From a virus, in IMG/VR virus record IMGVR_UViG_3300046832_001910, positions 32,001-96,000 of that record: a stretch of 64,000 nucleotides of DNA; one strand, 5' to 3'. The translations under genes and the position numbers were made by a program. The notes beneath the pieces were generated by a model. That model searched no databases and was not told the DNA's origin. It saw only the letters and a list, made by a program, of their open reading frames with translations. Positions 17,864-56,511 of this stretch are shown in pieces. The first letter of the stretch is position 1. Each line of letters opens with the position of its first letter.

Positions 17864-17864
17864 C

Positions 17865-24506: not shown

Positions 24507-25457
24507 ATGAAACACATCAAACTCTTTGAAGAATTTATTAATGAAGCAGTAGAAGATAGCGGTCTAAAGAAAGTCTATCTCGCTACTCGTCGTGATAGCG
24601 GACAAAGATGGTGGTCATATAAAGGATTTGCTGGTGATAAATTCTTTATCCAAGTAACTGAAAATAATATTGATAAGTTGGATATTAATCCTGACTATCC
24701 TGTATTAAATTATCATAGTACTATTGTTGATGAACTACTAAAGAAAGGAAAGATTAAAGAAGAAAATATCTATAATCATCCAAAGTACATTCCACTATCC
24801 GGTTCAAAGAAAGAGTTTCATAAACTTGTAGGTGAAGATGAAAATGTTCCTAAAACGGTTTACTCAAAGAATGAGGCATTAGAAAAGTTAAACTTTCCTA
24901 TTATTGCAAAACCTGCAAACGGTCACAGCGGAATAGGAATCCAGGTAATTAAGAAACCTGAATTGATGGAAGATATTGATGAGAAAGTATTTGATACTTT
25001 TTCTGAATATGTTGATAAGGTTGAGGAAATGAGATTCTTTAACTTTAAAGGTCAACCTATCTTTTGGATGGAAAGAACACCTGCAAACAGTAAAGCTAAG
25101 TCTGGTGATGGTAAGACTGATGAAGAGATGGAATTTAATTATGCAAAAAGAAACGTAGATAAAGTTCCTGCTGATTATAAGAAGGTCTTAGAAAAGTACT
25201 GTAAGATTTTTGAAAAGTTTCCTTACATCTGTTTTGATATGATGAAGGATAAAAATGGTAAGATCTTTGTAATTGAATCAAATGCCCAACCTGGCGTACC
25301 TTTTGATAGTACGGTTCAAATTTACAAAAAGATATATGAAGATTTCTATGGCAAACCGCTAGACGAAAAATCTCTTCAAAAACTGGATGAATACTCCAAG
25401 GAAATGGTTGAAAGAACGCTAAAACGTGATAGTGGAAGATTTTCAATAAAAAATTGA
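24507..25457 (+). CDS. ATP-grasp (RimK-like) protein with MKHIKLFEEF N-terminus
   Basis: VPKT, FPIIAKPANGHSGIG, FDMM, VIESNAQPG. Confidence 0.75.
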   Translation: MKHIKLFEEFINEAVEDSGLKKVYLATRRDSGQRWWSYKGFAGDKFFIQVTENNIDKLDINPDYPVLNYHSTIVDELLKKGKIKEENIYNHPKYIPLSGSKKEFHKLVGEDENVPKTVYSKNEALEKLNFPIIAKPANGHSGIGIQVIKKPELMEDIDEKVFDTFSEYVDKVEEMRFFNFKGQPIFWMERTPANSKAKSGDGKTDEEMEFNYAKRNVDKVPADYKKVLEKYCKIFEKFPYICFDMMKDKNGKIFVIESNAQPGVPFDSTVQIYKKIYEDFYGKPLDEKSLQKLDEYSKEMVERTLKRDSGRFSIKN

Positions 25458-33151: not shown

Positions 33152-33174
33152 ATGGTTAAACTCTCGGTTTTGAT

Positions 33175-33206: not shown

Positions 33207-33241
33207 GCTTGCAGATAAATAATAAAATTAAGAAGACATTA

Positions 33242-34714: not shown

Positions 34715-34719
34715 TCATT

Positions 34720-37069: not shown

Positions 37070-37078
37070 AATATCTAA

Positions 37079-37492
37079 ATGGAAAAAATATATTCAAAAA
37101 AGGAACCCGAAAAACTATTACATATAATAGTTAGAAAAGAGGATATGAAACCTGGTAGAGAGGATATTGTTTCAGAAGAAAATTTTATACAATGTTCCAT
37201 ACTAAATATGAGTAAGGGGAAAACTTTTAAACCACATAAACATATTTGGAAAGAAAGAACACGTAATGTAATTGCACAAGAGAGTTGGATTGTAATCAAA
37301 GGATCCGTAAAATGTATATTTTATGATTTGGATGATAACATAATTGCAGAACCTATATTATATGCAGGCGATGCAAGCTTTACGTTAGAAGGTGGGCATA
37401 ATTATTTGATACTGGAAGATGATACTTTAGTATATGAGTATAAGACAGGCCCTTATGAAGGACAGCGGCTTGACAAAACATTTATTATATGA
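37079..37492 (+). CDS. Cupin-fold protein (WbuC-like)
   Basis: PHKH...QE...GGH...EYKTGPY. Confidence 0.7.
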   Translation: MEKIYSKKEPEKLLHIIVRKEDMKPGREDIVSEENFIQCSILNMSKGKTFKPHKHIWKERTRNVIAQESWIVIKGSVKCIFYDLDDNIIAEPILYAGDASFTLEGGHNYLILEDDTLVYEYKTGPYEGQRLDKTFII

Positions 37493-38094: not shown

Positions 38095-38101
38095 AAGGTG
38101 A

Positions 38102-38627
38102 TATGAGATATAAAAAATTAGGTGAAGATGTTTATATTGGCGAATATGCAACAATAAAGAATCCTAACCTGTGTGAAATTGGAAGTCATAATGCTATTGA
38201 TAACGGTGTTATAATTTCAACAGAATTGGTCATGGGGGATTACATACACATTGCGCCGTATGTAGTTGTAATCGGTGGTAAAAAATCTAAACTTATTCTA
38301 AATGACTTTTCATTCGTTGCATCAGGTACTAAAATTGTATGTGGTAGCGAGGATTATACTGGTGCAGGTTTAGTCGGTCCTACTATTCCTGAAGAATATA
38401 GATCTGTAACATATAGCACGGTAACATTTGGTAAATATTCAGGCTGTGGTGTTAATTGTTCTGTTATGCCAGGTGTTACTTTTGGTGAAGGTTCTATACT
38501 TGGCGCAAATTCATTAGCGGTTAAAGATCTTGAGCCTTGGACTATTTATGTTGGTAGTCCTGCTAAACCTGTGAAGGTTAGAGATAAGGAAAAGATATTA
38601 GAATATGCAAAAAGGCTAAAACAATAA
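38102..38627 (+). CDS. Hexapeptide-repeat acyltransferase
   Basis: Left-handed beta-helix repeats; GANS...YVGSPAKP. Confidence 0.85.
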
Positions 38628-39272
38628 ATGATCAAGTTTCACACATACGGGGATAGTCATGCATCAAAACATGGATCGTGGGATCGGGTAAATTTAGATG
38701 AAGTTAATATAGTTATAAACTGGTTAGGGCCTAAGACTATGTATAGTTTTGGTAGAGATAAAGAAATAATAATTAAAAGAAATGAAATCGGTGATAATGA
38801 TTTTATTTGTTTTTGTTTTGGTGAAATTGATTGTAGAGCTCATATTAATAAATATGAACCTAACTGGAAAGAAAATATAGACAATCTAGTTGATGAGTAT
38901 TTTAAGGCAATATATAAAAATATAAGTGGGTTAAACATTAAAGTATGTGTGTATAATGCAGTGCCTCAATTGGAAAGAAACTTGGAAAGATATAAATGGA
39001 TAATAGATTGGGAGAGTCTTGATCCGGTTAATAGAGCTTCTAAAGGTACTGATGAAGATAGAGTTAAATATACTCTTTATATGAATGAAAAACTTAAAGA
39101 GTATTGTAAAAATTATAACTACATATTTTTTGATGTTTATGAAAATTATGTAGATGATAAGGGATATCTTAATCCAATGTATTCAGATAATAATTGTCAT
39201 ATAGATAATCCGGTTTTTATTATAGAAAAACTAAAAAGTATAATTAATGAGCATGGAATTAAAAGTAATTGA
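38628..39272 (+). CDS. SGNH-hydrolase-like protein
   Basis: GDSH, FGEIDCR, DxxH near C-terminus. Confidence 0.6.
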   Translation: MIKFHTYGDSHASKHGSWDRVNLDEVNIVINWLGPKTMYSFGRDKEIIIKRNEIGDNDFICFCFGEIDCRAHINKYEPNWKENIDNLVDEYFKAIYKNISGLNIKVCVYNAVPQLERNLERYKWIIDWESLDPVNRASKGTDEDRVKYTLYMNEKLKEYCKNYNYIFFDVYENYVDDKGYLNPMYSDNNCHIDNPVFIIEKLKSIINEHGIKSN

Positions 39273-39885
39273 TTTTAGCGCAATAGAGGAATTTGAAAAA
39301 AAGATAGCAGAATTCTTTGGTGCCCCTTATGCTATAGCAGTTGATAGCTGTACTCATGGAATTGAACTATGTTTAAGATTGACTCAAACAAAGTCTATAA
39401 ATGTTCCAAATAGAACATATGTATCTGTACCAATGTTATCCTATAAATTAGGAATAGACTTAACATGGAGAAATGAGTCATGGGAAGATTATTATACCCT
39501 TAATTATGATGATAAAAGAATCATAGATGCTGCTGTACTTTGGAGAAAAGATAGTTATATACCAAACACATTTATGTCTTTAAGTTTTCAATATCAAAAA
39601 CATTTAAGCTTAGGCAGAGGCGGAATGATTCTTTGCGATAATAAAATAGATGCAGAAAGACTTAAGAAAATGAGCTATGATGGCAGATTACCAGGTATAC
39701 CTTGGCGAGATCAAAATATAGACACTATAGGGTATCATTATTATATGACACCAGAAACTGCTCAACTTGGATTAACTAAATTACCGGAAGCAATAAAAGA
39801 TCAACCAAAAAAGTGGAGATATCACGATTGGCCCGATTTAACAAAGATGTCCGTGTTTATAGATCCTTATTTACAAACCAAATAA
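39247..39885 (+). CDS. Short DegT/DnrJ-family PLP sugar aminotransferase
   Basis: FEKKIAEFFGAPYAIAVDSCT, IIDAA, LSFQYQKHL..GRGGM. Confidence 0.8.
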   Translation: MSMELKVIDFSAIEEFEKKIAEFFGAPYAIAVDSCTHGIELCLRLTQTKSINVPNRTYVSVPMLSYKLGIDLTWRNESWEDYYTLNYDDKRIIDAAVLWRKDSYIPNTFMSLSFQYQKHLSLGRGGMILCDNKIDAERLKKMSYDGRLPGIPWRDQNIDTIGYHYYMTPETAQLGLTKLPEAIKDQPKKWRYHDWPDLTKMSVFIDPYLQTK

Positions 39886-39902
39886 ATTAAACAAAAATAA
39901 AA

Positions 39903-40895
39903 ATGAAAAAAGCATTTATTACAGGAATATCGGGCCAAGATGGTTCTTACTTAGCAGAGTACTTATTATCATTAGGGTATGAAGTACACGGTATGGTTAG
40001 AAGACAGTCTATTGCTGAAAACCAGTCTGCGCGATTGCAACCTTATTTTGAAACAGGTAGATTATTTACACATTATGGTGATCTTCTTGATCAAACTTCA
40101 ATAGAGAAATTATTAACAGAAATTAAACCTGAAGAAATTTATAACATTGCTGCGCAAAGTCACGTGAGAATATCTTTTGATATTCCGCAATTTACAGTCC
40201 AATCAAATTCTATTGGTGTTGTAAATATGTTAGAATCTTATAAAAGAATATGTCCTAAATCTAAATTTTATCAAGCAAGTTCAAGTGAAATGTTTGGTTT
40301 AACGGTAGAAGAAGATGGTTTTCAACGCGAATCAACTGTAATGAATCCGGTATCACCTTATGGTTGTTCAAAGGTATTTGCATATAACATGGTTAGGCAT
40401 TACCGTAGAGCCTATGGATTACATGCTGTAAATGGAATCTTATTTAATCATGAGTCTCCTAGAAGATCTTCTAATTTTGTTACAAGTAAAGTTGTTAAAG
40501 GTGCATGTAAAATTAAGTTAGGTTTACAAGATAAACTTGAATTAGGAAACATGGATTCATATAGAGATTGGGGTCATTCCAAAGATTATGTTAAAGCAAT
40601 GTATATGATTATGAATCATACTGAACCTAATGATTACATTGTTTCTACAATGCAAACACATTCAGTTAGAGAAATGTGTGAGGTTGTATTTTCATATCTA
40701 GGTTTAGATTATAGAGATTATGTAATACAGAATTCTAAGTATTTAAGACCAGAAGAATTACCTTATCTAAAAGGAGATTCAACCAAGATAAGAAAGGAAT
40801 TGGGTTGGGAACCTAAATATACCTTTGAATCAATGTTACATGAAATGTGTGATCATTGGTTAGATGTTTTACAAGGTAAAGAATCTTTCAGATAA
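39903..40895 (+). CDS. gmd: GDP-mannose 4,6-dehydratase
   Basis: ITGISGQDGSYLAE, AAQSHV, YQASSSE, SPYGCSK, LFNHESP, RDWGH. Confidence 0.95.
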   Translation: MKKAFITGISGQDGSYLAEYLLSLGYEVHGMVRRQSIAENQSARLQPYFETGRLFTHYGDLLDQTSIEKLLTEIKPEEIYNIAAQSHVRISFDIPQFTVQSNSIGVVNMLESYKRICPKSKFYQASSSEMFGLTVEEDGFQRESTVMNPVSPYGCSKVFAYNMVRHYRRAYGLHAVNGILFNHESPRRSSNFVTSKVVKGACKIKLGLQDKLELGNMDSYRDWGHSKDYVKAMYMIMNHTEPNDYIVSTMQTHSVREMCEVVFSYLGLDYRDYVIQNSKYLRPEELPYLKGDSTKIRKELGWEPKYTFESMLHEMCDHWLDVLQGKESFR

Positions 40896-40904
40896 TTTTT
40901 GATA

Positions 40905-41624
40905 ATGAAAAGAACAATCATCATAATACCAGCAAGATGGGGCTCAACTCGTTTACCCGCAAAACCTCTCGTAGACATTTTAGGAAAGCCTATGATCCAA
41001 TGGGTTTATGATGAATGTAAAAAATCCGTAGCAGATGAGGTTTATGTAGCCACTGATGATGAAAGAATTCATCGTAAAGTTATTGCATTCGGTGGTAAAT
41101 CTATAATGACAAGTGATTGTAAAACTGGTACGGATCGTATTATTGAAGCTGCAAAGGATCTAACTTATGATATTTTAGTAAACATACAAGGTGATGAACC
41201 AGGATTAACCTTTAGAGATATTAATTCTCTTATTCATCTTGCCAATAAAAATCCTAATTCGGTTTCCACATTATCTGCTCTATTAGGACACGATGATCTA
41301 AAAAATAGGAATGTGGTAAAATTGGTTAAGTCTGGAAAAAAAATTGTGATGTTTACCAGAAGCAGTTCATATCTTTATAGCCCAGATGTAGAAAAACATA
41401 TAGGAGCATATGCATTTCCTAAAGATGTTATAAAACAGATAAGTAAGTTAAGAACACAAACCGAAAATGAAATAGCAGAATCTCTTGAGCAATTAAGATG
41501 GGCTGATTCTGGAATATCATTTACGTGTAATACGATATTACATGCTGCAAAGGGTGTAGATACCCCAGAAGATGTAATTATGATTGAATCATATCTGAAA
41601 CAAAGTAGAAAAATATCAATATAA
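40905..41624 (+). CDS. kdsB: CMP-Kdo synthetase (3-deoxy-manno-octulosonate cytidylyltransferase)
   Basis: IPARWGSTRLPAKPL, VATDD, GTDR, NIQGDEP, ESLEQLR, VDTPED. Confidence 0.9.
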   Translation: MKRTIIIIPARWGSTRLPAKPLVDILGKPMIQWVYDECKKSVADEVYVATDDERIHRKVIAFGGKSIMTSDCKTGTDRIIEAAKDLTYDILVNIQGDEPGLTFRDINSLIHLANKNPNSVSTLSALLGHDDLKNRNVVKLVKSGKKIVMFTRSSSYLYSPDVEKHIGAYAFPKDVIKQISKLRTQTENEIAESLEQLRWADSGISFTCNTILHAAKGVDTPEDVIMIESYLKQSRKISI

Positions 41625-42465: not shown

Positions 42466-42714
42466 ATGAGCTTCCACAAAAGGTACATTGATAATAACCA
42501 GGTTATATCTCTATTTAAAGCCGGCGGTGCTGAACGAGTTATAAAGTGGTATACTGGCAAGGTTGATGCTCTAATCCTAGAATCTGGTTTGGCATCTGAC
42601 ATTAATAAAATTCTTAGTGATAGTGAATGGGCTATTCTAGGCGCTACCAAAATTTCCGAAGAAATTACAAATAGAATAAATCAGGAATTAGGAATTGAGG
42701 AAATAAAAAAATAA
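42466..42714 (+). CDS. Hypothetical protein
   Basis: 82-aa ORF ending at terminator. Confidence 0.65.
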   Translation: MSFHKRYIDNNQVISLFKAGGAERVIKWYTGKVDALILESGLASDINKILSDSEWAILGATKISEEITNRINQELGIEEIKK

Positions 42715-42733
42715 GGGACTTCGGTCCCTTTTT
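42713..42733 (+). terminator. Terminator with cUUCGg tetraloop
   Basis: aagggac-ttcg-gtccctt plus T-run. Confidence 0.85.
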
Positions 42734-42778: not shown

Positions 42779-43486
42779 GTGAAATTTATTAAGAACTTTG
42801 TTAATTTCTTAACAGAAAAGAAAGAAGAAGATTTTGAGGACAAAATAAAGGGCCACGGATATTTTAAGGGAATATCTCAATCAACTGCTCGTAAAAAGCT
42901 ATCTCAAATGAAAGACCAGGCAGATAAGCCTGATGATGATCCATCTGCATATAAAGAATTACCTGGTGATACAAAGGGAAAGAAACTTCTAAAAACATCC
43001 AAGCATACTAAAACATATCAGGATCTTTATGGTGATGAAGAAAAAGAAAAGAATGAATCAATCATTAATTGGGAACTTCATCAAAAGCTTAAAGGTAATG
43101 ATATTAAGATAGAGAAAGAATTTTATCAATTTCCTTATCTTTTAAATGAAGATGATGCAGGTGGAGATCGTTCGCCTATTGATAATCCTGATATTGAAAC
43201 CGCTCTTAAAAATAAGAGTGAAGAAACTGGAGTACCGGTACCACTTCTTAGAATTGTAATGCGTCGTGGTATGGCTGCATGGAAAAGTGGTCATCGTCCG
43301 GGTGCAGGGCAAGAACAGTGGGGATATGCAAGAGTTAATTCATTCCTAACACAAGCTCCAGGTACATGGGGTAGACCTATTAAAGATCCACAAAAGAATG
43401 GTCCTAAAGGTGCTTATGGTGCAGATGCCGATGTTGCTCAAGAGGTAATTAAAGGTGGCCATGATAAAAACCTAAAAAAGAAATAA
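42779..43486 (+). CDS. Putative head-internal protein (MKFIKNFVNFLTE)
   Basis: Shared N-terminal motif; RRGMAAW...HRPG...QWGYARVNSF domain. Confidence 0.65.
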   Translation: MKFIKNFVNFLTEKKEEDFEDKIKGHGYFKGISQSTARKKLSQMKDQADKPDDDPSAYKELPGDTKGKKLLKTSKHTKTYQDLYGDEEKEKNESIINWELHQKLKGNDIKIEKEFYQFPYLLNEDDAGGDRSPIDNPDIETALKNKSEETGVPVPLLRIVMRRGMAAWKSGHRPGAGQEQWGYARVNSFLTQAPGTWGRPIKDPQKNGPKGAYGADADVAQEVIKGGHDKNLKKK

Positions 43487-43487
43487 G

Positions 43488-43934
43488 ATGAAATCAATAA
43501 AACTTTTTGAAGAATTTAAGGAGGCAACATCTTGCCCAGTTCCTACTAAAGATTTAGAAGTAAATACAAAAAATCGTGATCGTGCAATAAAGGCTGAGTA
43601 TATTGAATATGGCCCTCTTAATGTTGATGAGCCTGCAGGATTTTGGGAACATATAGCAGATCATTGGAACACCAGTGTTGAAGCTGCTAAAAAATCTACC
43701 TGTGGTAATTGCGTTGCATTTGATATATCACCAAGAATGTTGGATTGTATGCCAGGTGAAATTAGTGATAAAGATGGTAAGTTAGGTTATTGCTGGATGC
43801 ATCACTTTAAATGCCACTCTGCTCGTACATGTTACACATGGGCAAAAGGTGGTCCTATAACAGAAGATAAGGTATCTTATAATTGGCAAGAAAAGAACCT
43901 TGACGCTGCAAACAATCCAGATCCTATTAAGTAA
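43488..43934 (+). CDS. Putative head-internal Cys/His-rich protein (MKSIKLFEEFKE)
   Basis: Shared N-terminal motif; CGNC...C..HHFKC...C. Confidence 0.65.
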   Translation: MKSIKLFEEFKEATSCPVPTKDLEVNTKNRDRAIKAEYIEYGPLNVDEPAGFWEHIADHWNTSVEAAKKSTCGNCVAFDISPRMLDCMPGEISDKDGKLGYCWMHHFKCHSARTCYTWAKGGPITEDKVSYNWQEKNLDAANNPDPIK

Positions 43935-43938
43935 GCCT

Positions 43939-44481
43939 ATGAAATTTGTAAAAAACTTTAATGATTATCATAAGGTCTCTGAAGGCCTTAAGTATCATGT
44001 TGAAAATGGATTGGACTTAACCAACTCGGTTTATCGTTTAGGTTCAGATTCTTATGCTGATCTCTTTGAAGAGGTTAAGCAATATTGGGATAAAGGAAAT
44101 ATCATTCTAAACGGAAAGAGTGGTTGGATGGCAAAGAATCTTGAGGTTGGAAAACCTGCTGTCTATAATGATAGAAAAACCGGAAGAACTACCAAAGTAA
44201 AACTGGATTCACCAGAGCGTGGTGGAAATAAAAAGTTTATTGTTTATCGTAATAGTGGCCGTACTGATGAAAATGGCAATGTTATTGCAAAAAAGATTGA
44301 ATGGGGCGATCCTAATCTTAGTGTAAAGAATGATGATCCAGGCAGGGCTGCATCTTTTTGGGCTCGTCATGGTTGCGATAAAGCTGAAAAAATGGATCCT
44401 AATAAGGCCGGTTTTTGGGCATGTTATGGCCCAAGCCTATTTGGAAAACAGTTAGGTTTAAGTAGTACTGAACCTTGGTAA
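43939..44481 (+). CDS. Putative head-internal protein (MKFVKNFNDY...SE)
   Basis: Shared N-terminal motif; KKFIVY...WGDP...SFWARHGC...WAC. Confidence 0.65.
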   Translation: MKFVKNFNDYHKVSEGLKYHVENGLDLTNSVYRLGSDSYADLFEEVKQYWDKGNIILNGKSGWMAKNLEVGKPAVYNDRKTGRTTKVKLDSPERGGNKKFIVYRNSGRTDENGNVIAKKIEWGDPNLSVKNDDPGRAASFWARHGCDKAEKMDPNKAGFWACYGPSLFGKQLGLSSTEPW

Positions 44482-44511
44482 ATAAATAAAACAAATAAAT
44501 TAAAGAATATT

Positions 44512-45867
44512 ATGAGACACATTCCAAGTTACTCGGAATTTAAGAAAATTAATGAAGCATTTGCAACTTCAATGACTACAGTTCAGACTGAAAGTAAACT
44601 TAATCAAGCTGCAGATATTATTACAAATTTCCTAAATAAGAAAACAGGTAAGGCATTCAAAAAGTTTCCTTTTCTGGTTTATTCAAACGGTACTCCAGGT
44701 ATTATGCTTTATAGCGATAAAGATAATTCTGCTGTAAGAATTAGTGGTGGTTCTGGCCATTTCCCTGGTGTGGTTGGTCAATTGGACTATTTTTCTGATG
44801 GAGCTTCTTACAATGCAGATTTCTCTGTAAGTAGCCAAACATTTCCAATTGTAGCATTACTTAATGAATTTGTTAAATTAATCAATGAGCCTTCATATGC
44901 AGGCGAAGTTGAAAGTTTAACTGAATCAATGGTTAATGAAGCAACTAAATCTTTTTCACCTGCTGAACAGAAAACAATTTTAGCACGTTTGGACAAAGGA
45001 GAAAGTGGTGCTGCTATTGCAAGAGACATGGGGGTATCATACGGAATGATTTTACAGCTTAAGAGAAATGTAAGTGTTCCTGAAGATGTTAATCCTGCTG
45101 TAAAGGCAAATGAAATGACCTTAGAGGATAAAGTTAAATTACTTGATGAAACATTAGATGACCTTTATGAAATCACAAGAAGACTTGCCGCAGGTGCATT
45201 TACCTCTTTAATGGTTTCAGGTAGAGCAGGTACTGGTAAAACATTCTCTGTTACTAAAGCTTTAAAGGATGAAGGATTAGTTGAGGATGATGACTTTATC
45301 GTTGTATCTGGTGCGGTATCAGTTATTATGATGTATAAGAAAATGTATCAGTACAGAAACCAAGTTCTTGTATTTGATGACTGTGATGCTGTATTCCGTG
45401 ATGAGAACGGTCGTAACATTCTAAAGGCTGCTCTTGATACCAAAAAGGTTAGAAGAATTAGTTATCTTAAGAAGAGCGGATTAGTATTTGACCCTAAAGA
45501 TTTTGAAAATAATCCAGAAGGCGAATTTAATGCAATTGAAAATGGATTAGTTCCAGCATATTTTGATTTTGGTGGTCGTGTGGTATTCATTTCAAACCTA
45601 CCAAAAGATAAAGCTGATCCTGATGGAGCAATTCGTTCAAGATCAATTTTATTAGATGTTAACCCAGATGATATGACTCTGATGGAAAGAATTAAGATTC
45701 TTTTGCCAGATCTTGAACCAAGAGATATGCCTTTAAAGGATAAAGAAGAAATATTTGAATTTATGAAGCGTGCAAAGGATGTATCAATGAGAACTTTTGT
45801 TAAAGCTGCAGGATTCAAACAAGCCGGTCTTAGAAACTGGGAAAGAATGGCACAAAGATACCTGTAA
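44512..45867 (+). CDS. AAA+ ATPase with HTH and capsid-targeting-like N-terminus
   Basis: GRAGTGKT, LVFDDCD, ISN, AIRSRS; HTH SGAAIARDMGVS. Confidence 0.75.
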   Translation: MRHIPSYSEFKKINEAFATSMTTVQTESKLNQAADIITNFLNKKTGKAFKKFPFLVYSNGTPGIMLYSDKDNSAVRISGGSGHFPGVVGQLDYFSDGASYNADFSVSSQTFPIVALLNEFVKLINEPSYAGEVESLTESMVNEATKSFSPAEQKTILARLDKGESGAAIARDMGVSYGMILQLKRNVSVPEDVNPAVKANEMTLEDKVKLLDETLDDLYEITRRLAAGAFTSLMVSGRAGTGKTFSVTKALKDEGLVEDDDFIVVSGAVSVIMMYKKMYQYRNQVLVFDDCDAVFRDENGRNILKAALDTKKVRRISYLKKSGLVFDPKDFENNPEGEFNAIENGLVPAYFDFGGRVVFISNLPKDKADPDGAIRSRSILLDVNPDDMTLMERIKILLPDLEPRDMPLKDKEEIFEFMKRAKDVSMRTFVKAAGFKQAGLRNWERMAQRYL

Positions 45868-45869
45868 TT

Positions 45870-47552
45870 ATGAAACATATTAATAACTACGACAATTACA
45901 AAAATTTAATTAAAGAAGCGGTTAGCGTTAGAACTGACCGTTATAAGAGATCTCATGGTAAAGAACCTCGTGGTAATGGTCTATGGGCCTTTTACTTTGA
46001 TGATAAAGAAGGTGATCCTATATTTACGCCAGGTGCAATGAATTATTCTGATGCTATTAAATGGGCAAAAGAAGAAGCTAAAAAAGCAGGTAAATCTGTT
46101 ATTTATGTTGGGGAATCGGTAAATGAAGCTGCACGAGTAGGTAAATCTTCATGGAAATCTGTATTATCTGATCTTGAAGATGAAGGATGGGACGTAAGCG
46201 GTAATACAGCAACACAAGAAGTTGATTCGGAAAAAGATCCTGAAGGATACGTTACTGTTGAACTTACAAGTAAAGGTGGTGATTATGTAAAGTATACCCT
46301 TAAAAGTTCAAAAGGCAAAGTAATTGATACCGATGAGATTGACGCCGAAGGTTTAAGTGCAGGTGAACTTAATAATGAAATTTGGCATTATATTAAGGAA
46401 TCAGTAAATGAAGCCTCTACCGTGAAGGATGAAGTTATCTCAAGACTATCTGATTTTTTTAGAGTATCCCCTAATGCCTTAAAGAAATTTAACTTTGATG
46501 GTAAAGATAACATTAAAGAATTAACTAAAGCATTAAACTCAACATCTGACCAAGGTACTGAAATGTACTATAAAGTTGCAATTGATTTAGCCAAAAAGGA
46601 TTTAGGAGAATCTGTTAGTGAAGGACAAGAACTTATCTTTGATATTGTAGAACCTGAATTTAACGATCTTAAAGGTAAACTAGATAATCTTAATAAGAAG
46701 ACAGTTGATCTAAAGTGGAGAAAGGCTCTGGACCAAATTCAACGAGAAGTTGAAAAACTTGAATTCTTTATTTCAAAATATGATCGCCAATTAGGTGCAA
46801 TTGAAACTAATGAATCAGTTAATGAAGCATGGTTTGGTCCATTTCAATTTAATGATAAAATGTCAGATGAAGAACTAAAAACAATGTATAATGATGCTGT
46901 AAACGGATATGCATATTGGAAAAAGGGATTGCAGTATCCTAAATCAGATTATAAGAAAGCATACCAGGAAATTGAAAAGATCCTAAAGAAAAGAGGGGTA
47001 AAGGTAGATGAATCTGCTATTAATGAAAAGGAATACTCTGATGAAGAAAGAAAGGCTCTTGCTGATAAAGGTCTTGCTCTCCCTGATGGTAGTTTTCCTA
47101 TAAAGAACCTAGATGATCTTAAAAATGCTATTCAAGCATATGGCCGTTCAAAGGATCAATCTGCTACTGCAAAATTTATTGTTAAGAGAGCCAAGGCTTT
47201 AAGCGCTGAGGATCTTATACCGGATACGGCTGACTTTCAAAAGGCTCTTAAAGAAACTCTTACTGAAGGAAATGCTTTTCTTGCCGCAAGAGCTAAGGCA
47301 ATTGAAGAAGACCTTGAAGAGTTTGAATTTAATGGTAAGAAATATCCTGTTCTAAATAGGCCTAAGATGGTTAAAGAAGAATTAGATCATAAGGATGCAA
47401 TGGCAATCATTAATGCTGCAGGGCAATTCACATCAACTGCCGATGAGGCTGCTGACCAAATGTGGAAGGATAAAGAAGACCTAGTTGATTATCTTTTATC
47501 GGATCATATCCCTAAAAAGTATCATTCACAATTCTTAAAATCAATTAAATAG
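45870..47552 (+). CDS. Multi-module protein with repeated ESVNE linkers
   Basis: ESVNEA x3, ESVSEG, ESAINE, ETLTEG separate unrelated modules; includes LPDGSFPI...KNAI module. Confidence 0.7.
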   Translation: MKHINNYDNYKNLIKEAVSVRTDRYKRSHGKEPRGNGLWAFYFDDKEGDPIFTPGAMNYSDAIKWAKEEAKKAGKSVIYVGESVNEAARVGKSSWKSVLSDLEDEGWDVSGNTATQEVDSEKDPEGYVTVELTSKGGDYVKYTLKSSKGKVIDTDEIDAEGLSAGELNNEIWHYIKESVNEASTVKDEVISRLSDFFRVSPNALKKFNFDGKDNIKELTKALNSTSDQGTEMYYKVAIDLAKKDLGESVSEGQELIFDIVEPEFNDLKGKLDNLNKKTVDLKWRKALDQIQREVEKLEFFISKYDRQLGAIETNESVNEAWFGPFQFNDKMSDEELKTMYNDAVNGYAYWKKGLQYPKSDYKKAYQEIEKILKKRGVKVDESAINEKEYSDEERKALADKGLALPDGSFPIKNLDDLKNAIQAYGRSKDQSATAKFIVKRAKALSAEDLIPDTADFQKALKETLTEGNAFLAARAKAIEEDLEEFEFNGKKYPVLNRPKMVKEELDHKDAMAIINAAGQFTSTADEAADQMWKDKEDLVDYLLSDHIPKKYHSQFLKSIK

Positions 47553-47553
47553 A

Positions 47554-48519
47554 ATGAAGTATTTTAATACATACCAAGAATTCCTAAATGAAAAGTATAT
47601 TTATCCTGATAATGTAAAAGTAACTGGTGATAAGATACTTGATAAATTTGCAAAATTAATTCATACTCCCTCTGGTACTGTAAAGATTATGTCTTGGGCA
47701 GTACAAGGTCTTTCTGTTCCTTTTATGAATGGTCCTCAGACTTTTTCTGTTACAGGAAACCCATCAGAAGATACTTATGCAATTCGTACCTCTAACGGTT
47801 TATTTAGACTAAAGAAGGATCAAATTAAAAAGGCTGAAGAACTGTATGACGAAGTTGAATCACTGGTACAGGCAGGTAAACCTAAAAGAAGTGTTGAAGA
47901 ATCTTTAAGCGAATCTATTAATATTAAAGATATTAAAGTAGGTACGATTCTAAACTTTAAAGATGGCGAAGTGTGGAAGGTTACAAAGATTGCTGGTCCT
48001 TCATCAAATCCTAGAGGGTTTTTTGCCAAACCACACGATGAAAAGACAAAGAAGGCTAATACATCTGTTGAGATTGAGCTAAAGCCCGACTTTTTACAAA
48101 AAGAATTAGAATCTTTAAATGAATCGTCTCAGATTAAAGTAGGCACTTTCGTTAGATATAAAAAAGATAAAGATTTTACAGGAGGAAAGGTAATATCTAT
48201 TAACGGTGGCAATGTAGAAATCCACAACTGGGACGGATCTACAATTGAATTACCTATCAAGGATTTAGAATATGTAAAATCTTGGAATGAATCTATTGAT
48301 TCTGCTATAAAAATTCTTAAAAAAGAAAACATTATGGCATATCCTAATCCCGAAGATTTGGCAAAAGCAATTCATAAGCATTATAAAGAAATTACTGGTA
48401 ATAAATACGAAGATGCCGTTGAAATGTCAATGAATGATAAAGTGGCTGATATCGTATCATACTTTAAAATTGACGGTTCTGATTTTATGTCCGCTTGGGA
48501 TAAAACAATAAAAGATTAA
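47554..48519 (+). CDS. Multi-module protein (MKYFNTYQEFLNE) with SH3/KOW-like modules
   Basis: ESLSE/ESLNE linkers; IKVGT-start beta modules. Confidence 0.65.
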   Translation: MKYFNTYQEFLNEKYIYPDNVKVTGDKILDKFAKLIHTPSGTVKIMSWAVQGLSVPFMNGPQTFSVTGNPSEDTYAIRTSNGLFRLKKDQIKKAEELYDEVESLVQAGKPKRSVEESLSESINIKDIKVGTILNFKDGEVWKVTKIAGPSSNPRGFFAKPHDEKTKKANTSVEIELKPDFLQKELESLNESSQIKVGTFVRYKKDKDFTGGKVISINGGNVEIHNWDGSTIELPIKDLEYVKSWNESIDSAIKILKKENIMAYPNPEDLAKAIHKHYKEITGNKYEDAVEMSMNDKVADIVSYFKIDGSDFMSAWDKTIKD

Positions 48520-48521
48520 TT

Positions 48522-48938
48522 ATGATAACTACATTTAACAATTTCGTAAACGAAAATTTTGGAGAAGCACAAGATCTTTATGGATCATTTTTTGTGGCTA
48601 TGTTAGGACTTAGAGATCAAGCTCATGTCTTCCATTGGCAAACAGAATCATTTGCACAACATAGTGCATTTGGCGGATTTTATGATACCTACCTAGACCT
48701 AGTTGATAAACTAGCAGAATCCCTAATCGGTGTTCATGGAAGACCTTCTTTTATGGAAGCTGAAATTGAATTATCTGGTTATAGCGACCAAAACATTATG
48801 ATCTTTATAGAAAAAGCATATGAACTATTCTTAGGCCAAGGTACTGAATTGGCTGGAGGTAACTCCGAGATTAAGAATATCATTGATGAGATTATTGCTG
48901 AACTTGATAAACTAAAGTATCTTCTTACACTAAAATAA
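48522..48938 (+). CDS. Ferritin/Dps-like four-helix protein (DUF5856-like)
   Basis: HVFHWQT..FAQH.A....Y......DKLAE; NIIDEI...KLKYLL. Confidence 0.75.
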   Translation: MITTFNNFVNENFGEAQDLYGSFFVAMLGLRDQAHVFHWQTESFAQHSAFGGFYDTYLDLVDKLAESLIGVHGRPSFMEAEIELSGYSDQNIMIFIEKAYELFLGQGTELAGGNSEIKNIIDEIIAELDKLKYLLTLK

Positions 48939-49234
48939 TGAAACACGTAAAACTGTTTGAGGCATGGTTAAATGAAGGAAAGCCTAAAGGTGCTCCTGAC
49001 TGGCATGATTCAGATGCCCCTGATGCAGAAGGCCGTTTTCGTGATCTTAATCCAAAAGAACTTGCTGCATGGCTAATTAAAACCAGAAAAGGTGATCTTA
49101 AAAGGATAAGTGGATCATTAACTCAACAGGTTGTATTTAACCGCAATGATGATCCTGCATATGCAGATAAAATGGAAAGAACCAGAAAAGAAGTTTATAA
49201 ACAATTAGGTAGAGAAGATCTCTTAAAGAAATAG
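48938..49234 (+). CDS. Putative head-internal protein (MKHVKLFEAWLNE)
   Basis: Shared N-terminal motif. Confidence 0.65.
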   Translation: MKHVKLFEAWLNEGKPKGAPDWHDSDAPDAEGRFRDLNPKELAAWLIKTRKGDLKRISGSLTQQVVFNRNDDPAYADKMERTRKEVYKQLGREDLLKK

Positions 49235-49636: not shown

Positions 49637-51661
49637 ATGGGAGAAATATATCCAGACGATAATAGAGAACAGGAATCTCAAAAGCAATTTAAGCCAAAAA
49701 GGTCAACTCTACAGATCTTAGAAACATACGGAACAAACATCAGTAAGTTGGCAACAGAAGGTAAACTTGACCCTGTTGTTGGTAGAGAAGAGGAGATTCT
49801 TAGAACAATACAGATCCTTGGTAGACGCAGAAAAAATAACCCAGTTCTTGTTGGAGAACCTGGTGTTGGTAAAACCGCTATCGTTGAAGGATTAGCAATG
49901 AGAATGATTGAAGGTAATGTACCTGCTTCATTACAAGGAAAAATCATTTATACTCTTGAGCTAGGTACGATTGTAGCCGGTACTAAATATCGTGGCCAAT
50001 TTGAGGAGAGAATGAAAGCCATCGTTGATGAGTTAATTGCTAATCCTCATGTAATTATTTTCATTGATGAATTACATACCCTTGTAGGCGCAGGCGGAAC
50101 ATCAGGTTCTTTGGATGCCTCAAACATTATTAAGCCTGCCTTGGCACGTGGAGATATCCGCTGTATTGGAGCAACTACTTTTGATGAGTTTAGAGAAAAT
50201 ATTGAACAAGATGGCGCCTTAGACCGAAGATTCCAAAAAGTAGTGGTGGATCCTGCTACAACCGAAGAAACCCAAATCATTTTAACAAACATTAAACATA
50301 AGTATGAATCGTTTCACAATGTTTCATACTCTGAAGAAATCATTTCTCTTATTGTTAAATTGGCGGATCAATACATAATGGAAAGGTTCTTACCAGATAA
50401 AGCCGTAGATATATTGGATGAGGTAGGTTCTTTTAAACATTTAAGTAATATGAAGGTTCCAAAGAAGATAAAAACTTTAGAGGAAAAGCTTCATAATAAA
50501 GAAGCAGATAAAAATGCGGCTGTGGCCAGACAAAATTATGAAGCGGCTGCAAAAGAACGAGATATTTGTATACAATTAAAAGATCAAATTCAAAGAGAAT
50601 ATTCTATTTGGAAAAGAGACATATCCGAAAACAAACTTGAAATTACAACAGATGATGTTCTTACTGTAGTGTCAAAAGGAACCGGCATTCCTTTAGAAAA
50701 AATTAGTGATAAGGAAAACAAAAACCTAATAGGTCTTAATGATCATTTATCATCTCGTGTGATTGGTCAAAAGGAAGCCATTGATAAAATTTCAATAACA
50801 ATCCAAAGAAACCGAGTAGGTATTAGAAAGAGAGACCGTACAGTTGGAAACTTTATTTTCTTAGGTCCTACTGGTGTTGGTAAAACCCAGTTGGCTAAAG
50901 AGATCGCAAGTTATATGTATAGCTCTGAAGATAGTCTTATTAGAATAGACATGTCAGAGTATATGGAACCTCATTCTGTCTCTAAGTTAATTGGATCCCC
51001 TCCTGGATATGTTGGACACGAATCTGGTGGGTTTCTAACGGAGCAGGTAAAGAGAAAACCACATTCTGTTATATTATTTGATGAAGTAGAAAAAGCTCAT
51101 CCAGAAGTGTTTAATGTGCTCTTACAAATGTTAGATGATGGGCGGCTTACTGATTCTCTTGGTAGGACTATTGATTTTAGAAACTGTTTGGTTATCTTAA
51201 CCTCTAATACAGGAAGTAGAAAACTTGAAGAGTTTGGAGAAGGGATTGGATTTAGACCATCTTCAACAATTGCTGAAAAGACCCATGCTGAAAAGGAGGT
51301 TCTAAAGAAAGCTCTAAATCATAAATTTTCTCCAGAGTTCTTAAATCGTATTGATGAAATTATTATCTTTAATAAGTTATCTAAAGAGGATGTATTTTAC
51401 ATTTTGGATAATGAATGTAATGAACTTAAAGATAACCTATTTGAGGTTGGTGAATATGATTTTAGAATTAGTAAGGCTGCAAAAGAAATTATCATAAATG
51501 AAGGTTATGATCCTAAGTTTGGTGCTCGTCCGCTAAAAAGAACTCTTGAAAGACTGATTGAAAATCCTATAGCTGAAATGATACTTAAAGGCCAATTACA
51601 ACCAGGCGATAAGATTAAAGTTGGGGTAGTCAAGGAATCAATAAAAATTGAAAAAGGTTAA
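49637..51661 (+). CDS. clpC: ClpC-like AAA+ unfoldase lacking the N-terminal Clp repeat domain
   Basis: [24 protein letters not shown]-like coil, [25 protein letters not shown]. Confidence 0.9.
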
Positions 51662-53264: not shown

Positions 53265-55121
53265 ATGACAAATTCAAGATCAAATGTGGTTAAGATGACT
53301 GAACATGAGTTTATGTCCCAGTTATCGCAAACACCTTTTGCAAAACCTAAAATTGCTTTAGGATTTTCGGTAGGACACGATAAAGGGGCAGTTCTTATCA
53401 TCAATGGTAAAATTGCAGTTGGAATATCAGAAGAAAGACTATCAAGAATCAAACATGATAGACCGTGGAACTATAATCTTCCTCTTGCATCAATTAATTA
53501 TTGTTTAGATTATGCAGGTATAGGTTATGATGATGTTGATATTTATGCATATAATACGGCTGAGGTTGGCTCTCAACCTATTGAAGACATTAAAAATGAA
53601 TTTCATATATTTTTAAGACAACCTTTAGATAAATTGAAATTCTTAAATCATCATGAGGCACATGCATATTCAACATTCTTTAGTTCAGGTTTAACTGAAG
53701 CCGCAGTAGTTGTTGCCGATGCAAACGGTAATGGAATCATTCCAGGAACACCTGCATATGAAAAACTTGCAAAGAATCATCCTAAGTATTTAGAAGAATT
53801 ACCTAAAGGTCGATTCTGGGCGGAAGGTACTTCAATATATCATTTTACTCTTGATGGGTTTACAGAATTAGAAAAGGATTTTGTTTTACAACCACATCCA
53901 TCGGTTGATGATTATAAGGTTAATGAAAGATATAACATTGGCCACGTTTATGCTTTTGCTACAATGAAACTTGTGTATAAGTATAATGAAAAAGATCCTA
54001 ATAAAAATTGGCCAGCATCAAGTGCAGGAAAGCTTATGGGATTGGCATCTTTTGGAAATAAAGGATGGGTAGAAACTCAACCTTACTTATGTGAATACGA
54101 TGATGTAAATCATACCTTTACAAATAAGGCTGGTTACATTCACTCTGTTTATCCTGGGGTAAATATAGATTCAAATTTTGCTGAACGAGCAAATGTAGCT
54201 GCAGTGTTTCAACGTGAACAAGAGAGAATGTCGCTATCGCTTGCCAAGAGAGCCAAAAAATTATCAAGATCAAAAAACATCTGTTTATCAGGTGGATCTT
54301 TCCTAAACTGTAATTCTAATGAAATCATAATTAATAGCGGTGAATTTGATAATTGTTATTTTGTACCACCTGCTGATGATAGTGGTATTCCATTAGGCTG
54401 TGCATGGTTTGCATATCAACAAATATCAAAAATTACTGAGAATGTATTTCTTTCACCCTATTTAGGAAAGAGTTACACTTCACTTGAAACGGAAAAGGAT
54501 TTTCAGAAGTTTCTTAGAGAATACCCTGATGCAATAAATTACATTACAATCTTTGATCATGATGATCAAGAAGTCTTGGTTACCCATATTACCGATTTAC
54601 TTAATAGTAATAAAGTTGTAGGAATGCATAGAGAAGGATCTGAAATTGGTCCTAGGGCTTTAGGTAATCGTTCAATCTTAGCATCTCCTATTATGCCGTG
54701 GATGCAGAATTATGTAAATATGCATGTTAAGAATAGAGAATGGTTTAGACCGTTTGCACCTTCGGTGTTATCAGAAAGAGTATCTGATATCTTTGATATT
54801 AGTGCATTCTCACCTTATATGTTGGTTACATGTAATGTTAAAGAAAAATGGCGTTCAAAGATTCCTGCTGTAGTTCATATTGATAACACATCAAGAATAC
54901 AGGCAGTAAGAAAAGATATTAATCCATTCTATCATAGGCTTATAACAAAATTTGAAGAGTGGACTGGAGTCCCAGTAATTCTTAATACATCATTTAACGG
55001 AGCTCACGAACCTATGGTTGAAACACCATACGATGCAATGAAAACATTTTGGACCTGTAACCTGGATGCAGTATGTATAGGAAGTAAATTAATTGTTAGA
55101 AATTCTTATTTTAATCAATGA
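53265..55121 (+). CDS. Carbamoyltransferase (NodU/CmcH/TobZ family)
   Basis: GHD, EERLSRIKH, HHEAHA, GKLMGLA, GPRALGNRSILA, REWFRPFAP, HIDNTSRIQ, LNTSFN. Confidence 0.92.
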   Translation: MTNSRSNVVKMTEHEFMSQLSQTPFAKPKIALGFSVGHDKGAVLIINGKIAVGISEERLSRIKHDRPWNYNLPLASINYCLDYAGIGYDDVDIYAYNTAEVGSQPIEDIKNEFHIFLRQPLDKLKFLNHHEAHAYSTFFSSGLTEAAVVVADANGNGIIPGTPAYEKLAKNHPKYLEELPKGRFWAEGTSIYHFTLDGFTELEKDFVLQPHPSVDDYKVNERYNIGHVYAFATMKLVYKYNEKDPNKNWPASSAGKLMGLASFGNKGWVETQPYLCEYDDVNHTFTNKAGYIHSVYPGVNIDSNFAERANVAAVFQREQERMSLSLAKRAKKLSRSKNICLSGGSFLNCNSNEIIINSGEFDNCYFVPPADDSGIPLGCAWFAYQQISKITENVFLSPYLGKSYTSLETEKDFQKFLREYPDAINYITIFDHDDQEVLVTHITDLLNSNKVVGMHREGSEIGPRALGNRSILASPIMPWMQNYVNMHVKNREWFRPFAPSVLSERVSDIFDISAFSPYMLVTCNVKEKWRSKIPAVVHIDNTSRIQAVRKDINPFYHRLITKFEEWTGVPVILNTSFNGAHEPMVETPYDAMKTFWTCNLDAVCIGSKLIVRNSYFNQ

Positions 55122-55306
55122 GAAAGTTTATAGAATTTACTCTTATTTGGATAAGTCAAAATATGGCTATTCCTTTTTGGATGGTAGGACATATACATTT
55201 AATGACTTCCGTATATGAAGACATCCATGAAGTAATAATGAGTTTAGGAATGAATATTATTGTAGGAGTAGGGTTCTATTTAGATTGGAGAAAAACAAAA
55301 AAATGA
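55118..55306 (+). CDS. Small membrane protein
   Basis: 62 aa, two hydrophobic segments. Confidence 0.6.
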   Translation: MRKFIEFTLIWISQNMAIPFWMVGHIHLMTSVYEDIHEVIMSLGMNIIVGVGFYLDWRKTKK

Positions 55307-56511
55307 ATAACTTAGATAAGCAATATCAAGATCTACTTAAGACCATTTTAGAACATGGTGTAGAGAAAGGGGATCGTACTGGAGTTGGAACAAAGAGTAT
55401 CTTTGGTTACACTATCAGACATAATATGCAAGATGGGTTTCCTCTTCTTACAACTAAAAAGATGGCATGGAAACAAATCGTAACCGAATTAGTTTGGTTC
55501 TTGCGTGGAGACACAAACATTAAATTCCTTATTGACAATAATTGTCATATTTGGGATGGTGATGCTTACCAAGCCTATATTAAAAGATATAATAAAGGTG
55601 AATATGTTGGTAAAACCAAATTATTAGAGAATTCTAAGAAAAATAGAACATTAACTGAACCATTTACAATAGAAGAATTCATTGACAAAATCAAAACCGA
55701 TGATGAGTTTGCTAAGAAGTGGGGTGAATTAGGTCCAATTTACGGTGCACAGTGGAGAGATTGGGGAAGCGAGGTAGAGTTTGGCCAAGGTGAAAGCGTG
55801 TTATATGGTGGAATTGACCAAATTCAAAACCTAATTAATGATCTTAAAACAAACCCAGACTCAAGAAGATTAATGGTTAATGCTTGGAATGTTAAAGAAT
55901 TAGACCAAATGGTTCTTCCACCCTGTCATTATGGGTTTCAAGTTTATACTAGAAAAACTACCAGAGAAGAAAAAATAGTTAATCCTGGAAAATATAGAGC
56001 AATCTCATTAATGTGGAATCAACGTTCAGTGGATACATTCTTAGGTTTACCGTTTAACATTGCTTCTTATGGTCTTTTATTAGAGATTATTGCCAAAGCA
56101 GTCAATATGGTTCCAGATCAATTAATTGGTAACTTAGGTGATACTCACATTTACTTAAATCATATAGATGCAGTTAAAGAACAGATAGGTAGAGAAATGA
56201 CCTGGGAAGAACAAGTTCAATGGGTCATGAAAAATACTGATGTTGAATTAGAAAATCTCTACATAGTAGAAGAAATTGCTAAAGACTCTACCCCAAAGCA
56301 TACAAGACAACCTTATCCTCTACCAAAGTTAAATATTAATACTGAATGGTGGCCAACTGAAAGTGGCGAATGTGGTGAAGGTCCTATTGATGCATTAGGT
56401 GTTTTTAGAAGCTTTTCAGATATTAATTTCTGTAAGTGCCTAATAGAGGAAGATATTCAATTAGGTAAGTATAAATGCCATCCTACAATTAAAGCACCGT
56501 TAAATAATTAA
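55303..56511 (+). CDS. thyA: Thymidylate synthase (with insertions)
   Basis: DRTGVGT, FPLLTTK, ELVWFL, LGPIYG.QWR, SRR, LPPCH, QRSVDTFLGLPFN, GDTHIY. Confidence 0.95.
   Translation: MNNLDKQYQDLLKTILEHGVEKGDRTGVGTKSIFGYTIRHNMQDGFPLLTTKKMAWKQIVTELVWFLRGDTNIKFLIDNNCHIWDGDAYQAYIKRYNKGEYVGKTKLLENSKKNRTLTEPFTIEEFIDKIKTDDEFAKKWGELGPIYGAQWRDWGSEVEFGQGESVLYGGIDQIQNLINDLKTNPDSRRLMVNAWNVKELDQMVLPPCHYGFQVYTRKTTREEKIVNPGKYRAISLMWNQRSVDTFLGLPFNIASYGLLLEIIAKAVNMVPDQLIGNLGDTHIYLNHIDAVKEQIGREMTWEEQVQWVMKNTDVELENLYIVEEIAKDSTPKHTRQPYPLPKLNINTEWWPTESGECGEGPIDALGVFRSFSDINFCKCLIEEDIQLGKYKCHPTIKAPLNN

Follow-up and report, generated by a model that had tools for sequence, protein, structure and literature searches.

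In phage T4, loading of the internal proteins IPI, IPII, IPIII and Alt is directed by a short N-terminal leader, the capsid targeting sequence (CTS), which has two aromatic positions and a hydrophobic-x-Glu end and is given as MKTYQEFIAE (PMC8442874). In IPIII, residues 4 and 7 of the CTS serve targeting and residues 8 and 10 serve processing, which is blocked by Asp at residue 10, and the T4 protease gp21 cleaves after L/I-X-E (PMC9026906). The cargoes behind this shared leader are diverse and fast-changing (PMC3012670), with a single cut beside the CTS and one cargo per gene (PMC8442874); these papers, and the others given here by PMC number, are cited from excerpts, and statements about them extend to the excerpted text. 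Here we describe a run of leader-bearing genes in a 64,000-nucleotide stretch of viral DNA (hereafter the window), which comprises bases 32001–96000 of the 117,611-base IMG/VR virus record IMGVR_UViG_3300046832_001910 (CheckV completeness ~38%). Two of its proteins, p560 and p321, place one T4-like leader before a chain of small modules separated by repeated ESVNE-like linkers. We think it fairly probable that p560 and p321 are capsid-cargo polyproteins, loaded by the leader, cut at the linkers by the S77 prohead protease of the phage and delivered with its DNA.

Like T4, the virus encodes a protease of the gp21 family together with a gp20-type portal and a gp23-type capsid protein, and its leaders share the two aromatic positions and the hydrophobic-x-Glu end of the T4 internal proteins, again with diverse and fast-changing cargoes behind them. 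Unlike the T4 internal proteins, the proteins described here put up to seven modules in the window behind one leader, join them by an apparently dedicated, processing-only linker with mostly Asn at P2 (positions are counted back from the putative cut, with P1 last before it), and have modules shuffled between genes. RNA-virus and retrovirus polyproteins, single translation products that a viral protease cleaves at short, recurring sites into distinct functional proteins, offer an analogy without homology; unlike them, the chains here, highly variable in composition, would be accessory cargo of a double-stranded DNA phage and would be cut inside the procapsid. Polyvalent proteins (Iyer et al., 2017, PMC5512222) likewise combine many unrelated domains per polypeptide with extensive mosaicism, and were proposed to travel with the invading DNA and then to be processed into separate units. 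Their two to fifteen unrelated domains per protein compare with seven modules in p560 and four in p321. However, polyvalent proteins are defined by named enzymatic domains (such as ART, ParB-like and SNF2) and were proposed to be processed by an embedded zincin-like MPTase (PMC5512222), whereas Pfam scans of p560, p321, single modules and homologues, made with the Pfam and not the authors' profiles, found none of these signature domains, and here processing would fall to the head-maturation protease at a repeated linker between 56–107-aa (amino acid) modules that match no known family. In phiKZ, 201phi2-1 and SPN3US, a gp21-related protease cuts many head proteins after Glu, some at several sites and ejected ones among them; the motif there is S/A-X-E, the multiple sites are presented as redundancy in propeptide removal rather than joints between cargo modules, and the excerpted text describes no shared N-terminal leader (PMC9026906). 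A literature search, with PMC9503650 included and subscription journals outside its coverage, returned no description of leader-led, linker-joined, shuffled cargo chains, which would extend the CTS-directed loading of T4 internal proteins as a new variant.

The modular, shuffled architecture of these genes is close to certain. Every linker string that the earlier note on this DNA had listed in the genes at 44512, 45870 and 47554 is present where it was placed (Table 1), and the modules between them, put there at about 40–95 aa, measure 56–107 aa. A phmmer search with p560 against 1.84 billion representatives gave 4008 matches at E <= 0.001 (37 at E <= 1e-30), and the best-matching stretches of p560 end at module boundaries. 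When the window modules were mapped onto the best 150 of the 4008 matches, 208 of 227 module matches began at most 4 aa from the module start, and a hydrophobic-x-Glu lay at most 3 aa from the boundary at 173 of 208 junctions, compared with 32.0 ± 5.1 (maximum 49 in 200 trials) for random positions. All seven modules of p560 and all four of p321 recur independently in homologues, which supports the view of the genes as chains of independent modules. Gains, losses and changes of order among the modules of homologues fall exactly at the linkers, the check that the earlier note had called for. A1 has 22 full-length homologue matches (1–70 of 70), and stands alone behind a leader in the 90-aa P0073 and as a tandem duplicate in P0017. 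A2 directly follows the leader in P0010, P0036 and P0140, and A3 (19 matches in many contexts) is the only module behind the leader of the 82-aa P0091. The conserved start of A5, A-W/F-I/V-G-P-F, follows Glu at all 38 junctions of its 38 matches, be it the Glu of a leader or of a linker. A6 (96 matches) directly follows a 12–16-aa leader in many proteins, and A7 almost always follows A6. Similarly, the 109 homologues of p321 include the orders B1-B2-B4 (P0153), B2-B3-B4 (P0154) and B1-B4 (P0155). The cargoes of neighbouring genes behave in the same way: the 85-aa cargo of the 48938 gene recurs as the C-terminal module in P0014, P0019 and P0077 and opens the module chain of P0143, the DUF5824 cargo of the 42779 gene is the C-terminal module of the 1022-aa P0132, and in a tblastn search proteins of Escherichia coli and Shigella T-even phages, including RB69 NrdC.10, align with p451 from residue 144, the first after its double linker.

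The linker motif alone suffices to recover these units. Split at the motif, 188 leader-bearing homologues yielded 662 segments (median 75 aa), and 8,084 of 13,850 segment matches between proteins spanned at least 80% of both segments, compared with 354 of 14,673, 347 of 14,241 and 472 of 15,313 in three random-cut controls and 2,617 of 19,104 when the cuts were slid by 25 aa. The segments fall into 233 single-linkage families (159 singletons, 51 with at least three members), and the 188 proteins have 164 distinct architectures, with up to 12 internal sites per homologue. Among 50,697 phage records searched by tblastn, p560 matched only relatives of A6 and A7 and p321 matched none; a related-locus search of viral contigs returned nothing for p560 and found relatives with p321 as the query.

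Shuffling is also seen between close relatives. The IMG/VR contigs L006, L007 and L009 are syntenic with the window at this locus, with flanking proteins 76–97% identical (p451 C2 96%, a ClpB-like ATPase 90–91%, the 43939 gene 94–97%). At the p560 position they carry A1-A3-X-A4-A6-A7 (492 aa) or A1-B3-X-A6-A7 (481 aa) instead of A1 to A7, and at the p321 position B1-B4 (197 aa) instead of B1-B2-B3-B4. A2 is missing from the p560-position gene in all three, and B3 has its place in the p560-type gene of L009. The breakpoints between these contigs and the window coincide with linkers. In the more distant contigs L010 and L011, leader-bearing genes stand among the portal, protease/scaffold and capsid genes.

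Linkers, leader ends, the capsid-protein propeptide and the protease/scaffold protein have the consensus E-x-[VLI]-N-E↓[A/S/G] in common (the arrow marks the putative cut), which bears out the earlier remark that the linkers match the end of the N-terminal targeting motif. The core [LIVM]NE[ASG] occurs three times in p560, a count reached in 0 of 2000 shuffles (mean 0.11), and 27 times in the 162 open reading frames (ORFs) of the 117.6-kb record: four times in the protease/scaffold ORF, twice in the capsid-protein N-terminus, 12 times in leader-bearing proteins and nine times elsewhere. Of 13 sites of the looser pattern E[ST][ALVIM].?[NST]E, found in six ORFs, 11 lie within four leader-bearing proteins. 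Because the linker codons vary (TCG/TCA/TCT, GTA/GTT, GCT/GCC/GCA), it is the peptide that is conserved, and a DNA repeat as the origin of the linkers is ruled out by these synonymous differences.

Fourteen ORFs of the record begin with a variant of M-K-H-I-K-x-F-E-x-F-[IL]-N-E (15 matches to the regular expression, one apparently false), a further variant in the 48522 gene was missed by the expression, and eight consecutive leader-bearing genes occupy 42779–49234. Counted back from the cut, residues 4, 7, 8 and 10 of the T4 CTS are P7, P4, P3 and P1, and the p321 leader MKYFNTYQEFLNE closely resembles the T4 sequence. Across 148 distinct homologue leaders, P7 is Y/F in 71 and P4 is F in 73, with L/I/F/V at P3 and E at P1; both the targeting aromatics and the hydrophobic-x-Glu processing site of T4-type CTS-directed cargo are thus present. 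The 497 distinct internal sites, which were picked as hydrophobic-[NSTD]-E-[ASGKRN] and are therefore fixed from P3 to P1' by construction, have Ser at P4 in 168 cases, and aromatics are not among the six commonest residues at P4 or P7; Glu at P5/P6 is common to leaders and internal sites. Judged by these sequences, the linkers seem to retain the processing half of the leader and to lack its targeting half, and look like a conserved class of their own rather than decayed leaders.

The head genes lie outside the window, which has a GC content of ~33%. Both the portal (Portal_T4, 2.5e-73) and the gp23-type capsid protein (Gp23, 6.4e-30, with the match beginning at residue 104) are encoded upstream of it. 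The first ~160 residues of a 577-aa ORF at record positions 18509–20242 (L004:2510–4243) belong to the gp21 family of prohead proteases (Peptidase_S77, PF03420, 6.8e-16 and 5.6e-14, exceeding the cut-off; S80 matched too). The T4-type head and gp21-family protease of CTS-directed systems are thus encoded, including the head protease that the earlier note had presumed, and the motif [VLI]-N-E↓[A/S] recurs in the capsid-protein propeptide (HLINE↓A and NLNE↓S within the first 58 residues, before the Gp23 match) and in the protease/scaffold ORF (four [VI]NE↓S sites). A long stretch of ~11-residue repeats (Y-x-x-Y-[LVI]-A-E-x-[LV]-x-x) is fused to this ORF, and every repeat has a hydrophobic-x-Glu site; sites of this kind before A/S/G number 16 in the ORF, against 3.4 expected, and its sequence looks like that of a self-destructing scaffold joined to its own protease. 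Two ORFs downstream of the capsid gene and in its cluster, record positions 23669–24799 (L004:7670–8800) encode a 376-aa Lys/Ala/Glu-rich protein without a Pfam family, whose N-terminus is leader-like (MKELVNFEHF...) and which contains an AINE↓A site. Genes for a T4-type large terminase, a tail sheath and a split type II topoisomerase, along with many for nucleotide metabolism, were placed in the window by a family search. The nearest deposited record to the terminase is the uncultured 462-kb phage LR756500.1 (62% identity), followed by other huge uncultured phages and then by Tenacibaculum phage PTm1 and Sphingomonas phage PAU at 35%.

Because a global MAFFT alignment of the shuffled homologues misaligned A5 and A6, residues 1–319 and 387–560 of p560 were folded separately with AlphaFold2 (AF2); A5 (320–386) and p321 are outside the models. 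For residues 1–319 (22 homologues aligned), the mean predicted local distance difference test score (pLDDT) was 77.8, with at least 90 at 84 of 319 residues, and the predicted template modelling score (pTM) was 0.38; values below 50 at residues 85–92, 252–255 and 317–319 correspond to three of the four linkers in this model. This pTM with this mean pLDDT is as expected of a model of beads on a string. Residues 387–560 reached a pLDDT of 82.2. The limits that VIA-align set for A2 and A4 agree with the linkers. A4 (model residues 250–319) matched helical hairpins, and A2 (model residues 91–184) matched SycH (Z 8.3, root-mean-square deviation 3.0, 80 aligned), at a level where best Z values of 7–8 are common without a true match. 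A2 also matched further type III secretion chaperones (SycT 7.9, SycN-YscB 7.3, VecA, SchA, SpcS, SicP and ExsC); a type III secretion class I chaperone fold is a modelling lead only. Foldseek returned no match in the PDB at E <= 0.001 for either model; its weak rows, Xp10 P7 (6j9e_J and 2mc5, E 0.16–0.18) and SycT (2bsh_A, E 0.2), are leads only.

Almost none of the modules can be named from family profiles. Neither p560 nor p321 as a whole matched a Pfam family at E <= 0.01, the 11 single modules of the two proteins gave no family above the curated cut-off, and Pfam and PHROGs searches with the whole proteins and with 13 single modules gave nothing above the cut-offs except phrog_1250 for p451 C2. 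Among 77 multi-module homologues, 71 lack any Pfam family at E <= 1e-5, and a peptidase is absent from all 77; the other six carry PepSY_like, DUF3175, DUF5824, DUF3008 or a Zeta_toxin/AAA_33 kinase-like domain. With no known anti-defence family in the 11 modules or the 77 homologues, the anti-defence role put forward in the earlier note is not supported, though it is not excluded either.

Together with part of A7, A6 matches actinophage ORFs in their C-terminal parts. These ORFs, whose annotation is capsid maturation protease, lie directly upstream of the capsid gene and hold A6 in one to three copies; this presence in protease ORFs beside the capsid gene ties A6 to head interiors. The first ~66 residues of A6 are also repeated two or three times in tandem in proteins that lack a T4-like leader (P0027, P0031, P0038, P0043, P0063, P0103 and others; L002 and L003), several of which have actinobacterial-style N-termini. 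By sequence, A6 appears to be an old, widespread head-associated domain without a Pfam family. Matches of its model in BFVD are uncharacterised phage proteins of 80–713 aa, and a PDB sequence search with A6-A7 gave a weak match to 7arc_V alone (E 0.0034). An assignment of A6 to DUF6582 was rejected, as this label covers 13% of one viral hypothetical cluster and was not confirmed by Pfam.

We propose that the 13–16-residue, CTS-related leader would carry the entire chain into the prohead and its scaffolding core, where the gp21-type (S77) protease would cut after the Glu of E-x-[V/L/I]-N-E↓[A/S/G], removing the leader and separating the 56–107-aa modules, which would then stay inside the capsid and reach the host along with the DNA. 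The linker may thus act as a portable cut site that keeps the processing positions (hydrophobic P3, Glu at P1) and drops the aromatic targeting positions P7 and P4. Because release would give a module the same N-terminus in any context, modules could be added, removed or reordered at linkers, and related phages appear to have done so many times. The capsid-cargo reading is preferred because the phage has a T4-type head, an S77 protease and the motif in its capsid propeptide and scaffold; because the leader maps onto the T4 CTS position by position while the linkers form a distinct, processing-only class; and because the first residue of a module is identical behind leader or linker. We infer targeting of the leader-bearing chains to the head, which is quite likely, as we do their loading, cleavage at the linkers, retention and injection. 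On a broader claim our judgement is evenly balanced, namely that a combinatorial cargo system operates in huge T4-like phages from aquatic metagenomes. In such a system the E-S-V/L-N-E↓A joint would let any small protein be spliced into a chain behind one tag; loading would be in fixed proportion, and the head protease would free the modules for injection.

Several observations weigh against this interpretation. The phage is known from metagenomes only, and the cargo cluster lies ~55 kb from the head genes in the record. Three joints are the weakest: SWNE of p321 has Trp at P3, KESVNE↓A (181) is predicted to be helical and lies inside a long helix of the AF2 model, and KETLTE↓G (466) falls within a predicted helix at the A6/A7 joint, where A7 is rarely found without A6; both helical joints have a pLDDT of ~70–77. 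None of the 38 coding sequences in the first 37 kb of Tenacibaculum phage PTm1 has such a leader. The word TATAAATA, which we take to be that of T4 late promoters, was found eight times against 11 expected and never ahead of the cluster, so that late expression is unsupported, and a scan for sigma-70-like promoters was at chance (42 vs 42). If the leader is a capsid tag, the ATP-grasp-like and NrdC.10-like enzymes would be virion cargo, and the cargo set would then include large enzymes (the ATP-grasp protein and the 308-aa ATPase of p451 C2); NrdC.10 of T-even phages, a relative of this ATPase, is not known to be a virion protein. The linkers could also be functionless leader remnants from gene fusion. 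The modules have a pI of 4.4–8.2 and are not basic, whereas T4 internal proteins are described as highly basic (PMC8442874).

The alternative that survives best, unlikely as we judge it, is that the chains are packaged and stay whole: the leader would target them and perhaps be removed, and the linkers would be uncut flexible connectors whose likeness to the leader is left over from fused leader-bearing genes. The two helical joints suit such a chain, and uncut multi-domain virion proteins are known (N4 vRNAP, ArdC and TraC1; PMC5512222). A fusion origin predicts the resemblance of the linkers to the last five leader residues, yet the linkers are a conserved class of their own, with Ser at P4 and without aromatics at P4 or P7, and not decayed leaders. 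Moreover, P3, P2 and P1 are kept over the 497 sites (P3 to P1' being fixed by their selection) while the modules change, the differing codons indicate selection on the peptide, and the identical module start behind leader or linker is relevant only if cutting exposes the N-terminus.

Less probable still is that the leader does not target the capsid, and that the chains are cytoplasmic multi-domain proteins, such as early host-takeover factors, whose shared N-terminus would be there for translation, for folding or for some other localisation, and whose linkers would be plain connectors or sites of another protease. The resemblance of the leader to the experimentally defined T4 CTS at its key positions speaks against this, as does the occurrence of [VLI]-N-E↓[A/S] in the capsid-protein propeptide and the protease/scaffold ORF. 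The lack of any sign of late expression in the promoter scans and the distance of the cluster from the head genes fit cytoplasmic proteins, but one leader-bearing gene does lie inside the head cluster (record 23669–24799), and those of L010 and L011 flank the genes for portal, protease and capsid. Ordinary enzymes do occur among the cargoes, as such a reading would have it, whereas A6 is found in actinophage protease/scaffold ORFs adjoining the capsid gene. The least probable alternative, that these are accessory scaffold or core proteins like T4 gp22, gp67 and gp68, which are loaded, chopped and mostly expelled while their modules serve assembly, would account for the multiple candidate cut sites and the A6 copies in protease/scaffold ORFs of other phages, and has a precedent in the T4 core proteins that are cut into several fragments and mostly leave the head (PMC9026906), but the modules are confidently folded small domains (the 84 of 319 residues noted above) and not coiled-coil scaffold, their presence varies among phages with near-identical head-region neighbours, unlike that of essential assembly parts, and the phage already has a scaffold region in the 11-residue repeats fused to its protease.

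If the chains are cleaved, as the capsid-cargo reading holds, the T4 targeting principle would grow from one tag and one cargo to one tag and a freely recombining string of cargoes, and a separate, minimal processing signal would be available for loading several proteins into engineered T4-type capsids. The linker motif would then enable discovery, by sequence alone, of virion-delivered proteins in uncultured phages, a class that is otherwise invisible, and would index a large library of injected mini-proteins (188 proteins already yield the 233 segment families, almost none with a Pfam match). Given cleavage, module shuffling at defined peptide joints would also be a fast evolutionary mechanism, by which phages with 76–97% identical flanks already differ, and a virus-borne form of domain shuffling comparable to exon shuffling.

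Table 1. Leader-bearing genes, modules and linkers in the window (positions in nucleotides of the window; residues in the protein; arrows mark putative cuts)
Feature	Position	Strand	Residues	Description
Distant leader-bearing gene	24507..25457	+		Leader MKHIKLFEEFINE↓A; ATP-grasp-like cargo (ATPgrasp_YheCD, 1.1e-6)
Terminator-like hairpin	42713-42730			Directly upstream of the eight-gene leader run
First gene of leader run	42779..43486	+		Leader MKFIKNFVNFLTE; DUF5824 cargo (PF19141, 1.8e-15)
Single-cargo gene	43488..43934	+		Leader MKSIKLFEEFKE↓A; 88% identity in syntenic relatives
Single-cargo gene	43939..44481	+		Leader MKFVKNFNDYHKVSE↓G; listed ORF begins 13 codons earlier at TTG, relatives use Met at 43939
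p451	44512..45867	+		Double linker ESLTE↓SMVNE↓A, P1 at 139 and 143
p451 leader			1-15	MRHIPSYSEFKKINE↓A
p451 C1			16-143	
p451 double linker	44911-44940			ESLTE↓SMVNE↓A
p451 C2	44941-45864		144-451	Helix-turn-helix (HTH) + P-loop ATPase, T-even NrdC.10-like (phrog_1250, 1.9e-41)
p560	45870..47552	+	560 aa	16-residue leader + seven modules of 67-95 aa
p560 leader	45870..45917	+	1-16	MKHINNYDNYKNLIKE↓A
A1	45918..46127	+	17-86	Ends in ESVNE (46113-46127); GESVNE↓A, P1 at 86
A2	46128..46412	+	87-181	Ends in ESVNE (46398-46412); KESVNE↓A, P1 at 181
A3	46413..46622	+	182-251	Ends in ESVSE (46608-46622); GESVSE↓G, P1 at 251
A4	46623..46826	+	252-319	Helical hairpin; ends in ESVNE (46812-46826); NESVNE↓A, P1 at 319
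A5	46827..47027	+	320-386	Ends in ESAINE (47010-47027); DESAINE↓K, P1 at 386
A6	47028..47267	+	387-466	Most widespread module; ends in ETLTE (47253-47267); KETLTE↓G, P1 at 466
A7	47268..47549	+	467-560	
p321	47554..48519	+	321 aa	13-residue leader + four modules of 56-107 aa
p321 leader			1-13	MKYFNTYQEFLNE↓K
B1			14-120	
B1/B2 linker	47899-47913			ESLSE; EESLSE↓S, P1 at 120
B2			121-190	
B2/B3 linker	48109-48123			ESLNE; LESLNE↓S, P1 at 190
B3			191-246	
B3/B4 linker	48280-48291			SWNE↓S, P1 at 246
B4			247-321	
Leader-variant gene	48522..48938	+		MITTFNNFVNE↓N; DUF5856 cargo (PF19174, 5e-14; phrog_858)
Gene with one module	48938..49234	+		Leader MKHVKLFEAWLNE↓G + one 85-aa cargo module

Two of the leaders stand before ordinary-looking enzymes, the ATP-grasp-like protein (24507–25457) and the HTH and P-loop ATPase of p451 (44941–45864). 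One small ORF downstream of the cargo cluster, the window encodes a ClpB/ClpA-like double AAA+ ATPase (49637–51661; AAA_2, 6.8e-65; ClpB_D2-small), whose position is kept in the syntenic relatives at 90–91% identity; any tie to how head cargo is unfolded or refolded is conjecture. Elsewhere in the window, 22 tRNA genes for most amino acids form an array behind a tmRNA gene (14572–17950), and a GC-richer stretch encodes a 739-aa protein with collagen triple-helix repeats (28522–30741; PF01391, 3.4e-30, four stretches). Near glycosyl- and methyltransferase genes, the window has a carbamoyltransferase gene and two genes of the thymidylate synthase family, of which one is divergent and the other contains an insertion (the three at 23607–24488, 53265–55121 and 55285–56511); together they could form a DNA base-modification set. 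Directly upstream of the cargo cluster runs a series of sugar-nucleotide and glycosyltransferase-like genes (33152–41624), in which the N-termini of the ORFs at 39903 and 40899 resemble, by their motifs and outside any family search, those of a GDP-mannose dehydratase and a CMP-KDO synthetase.

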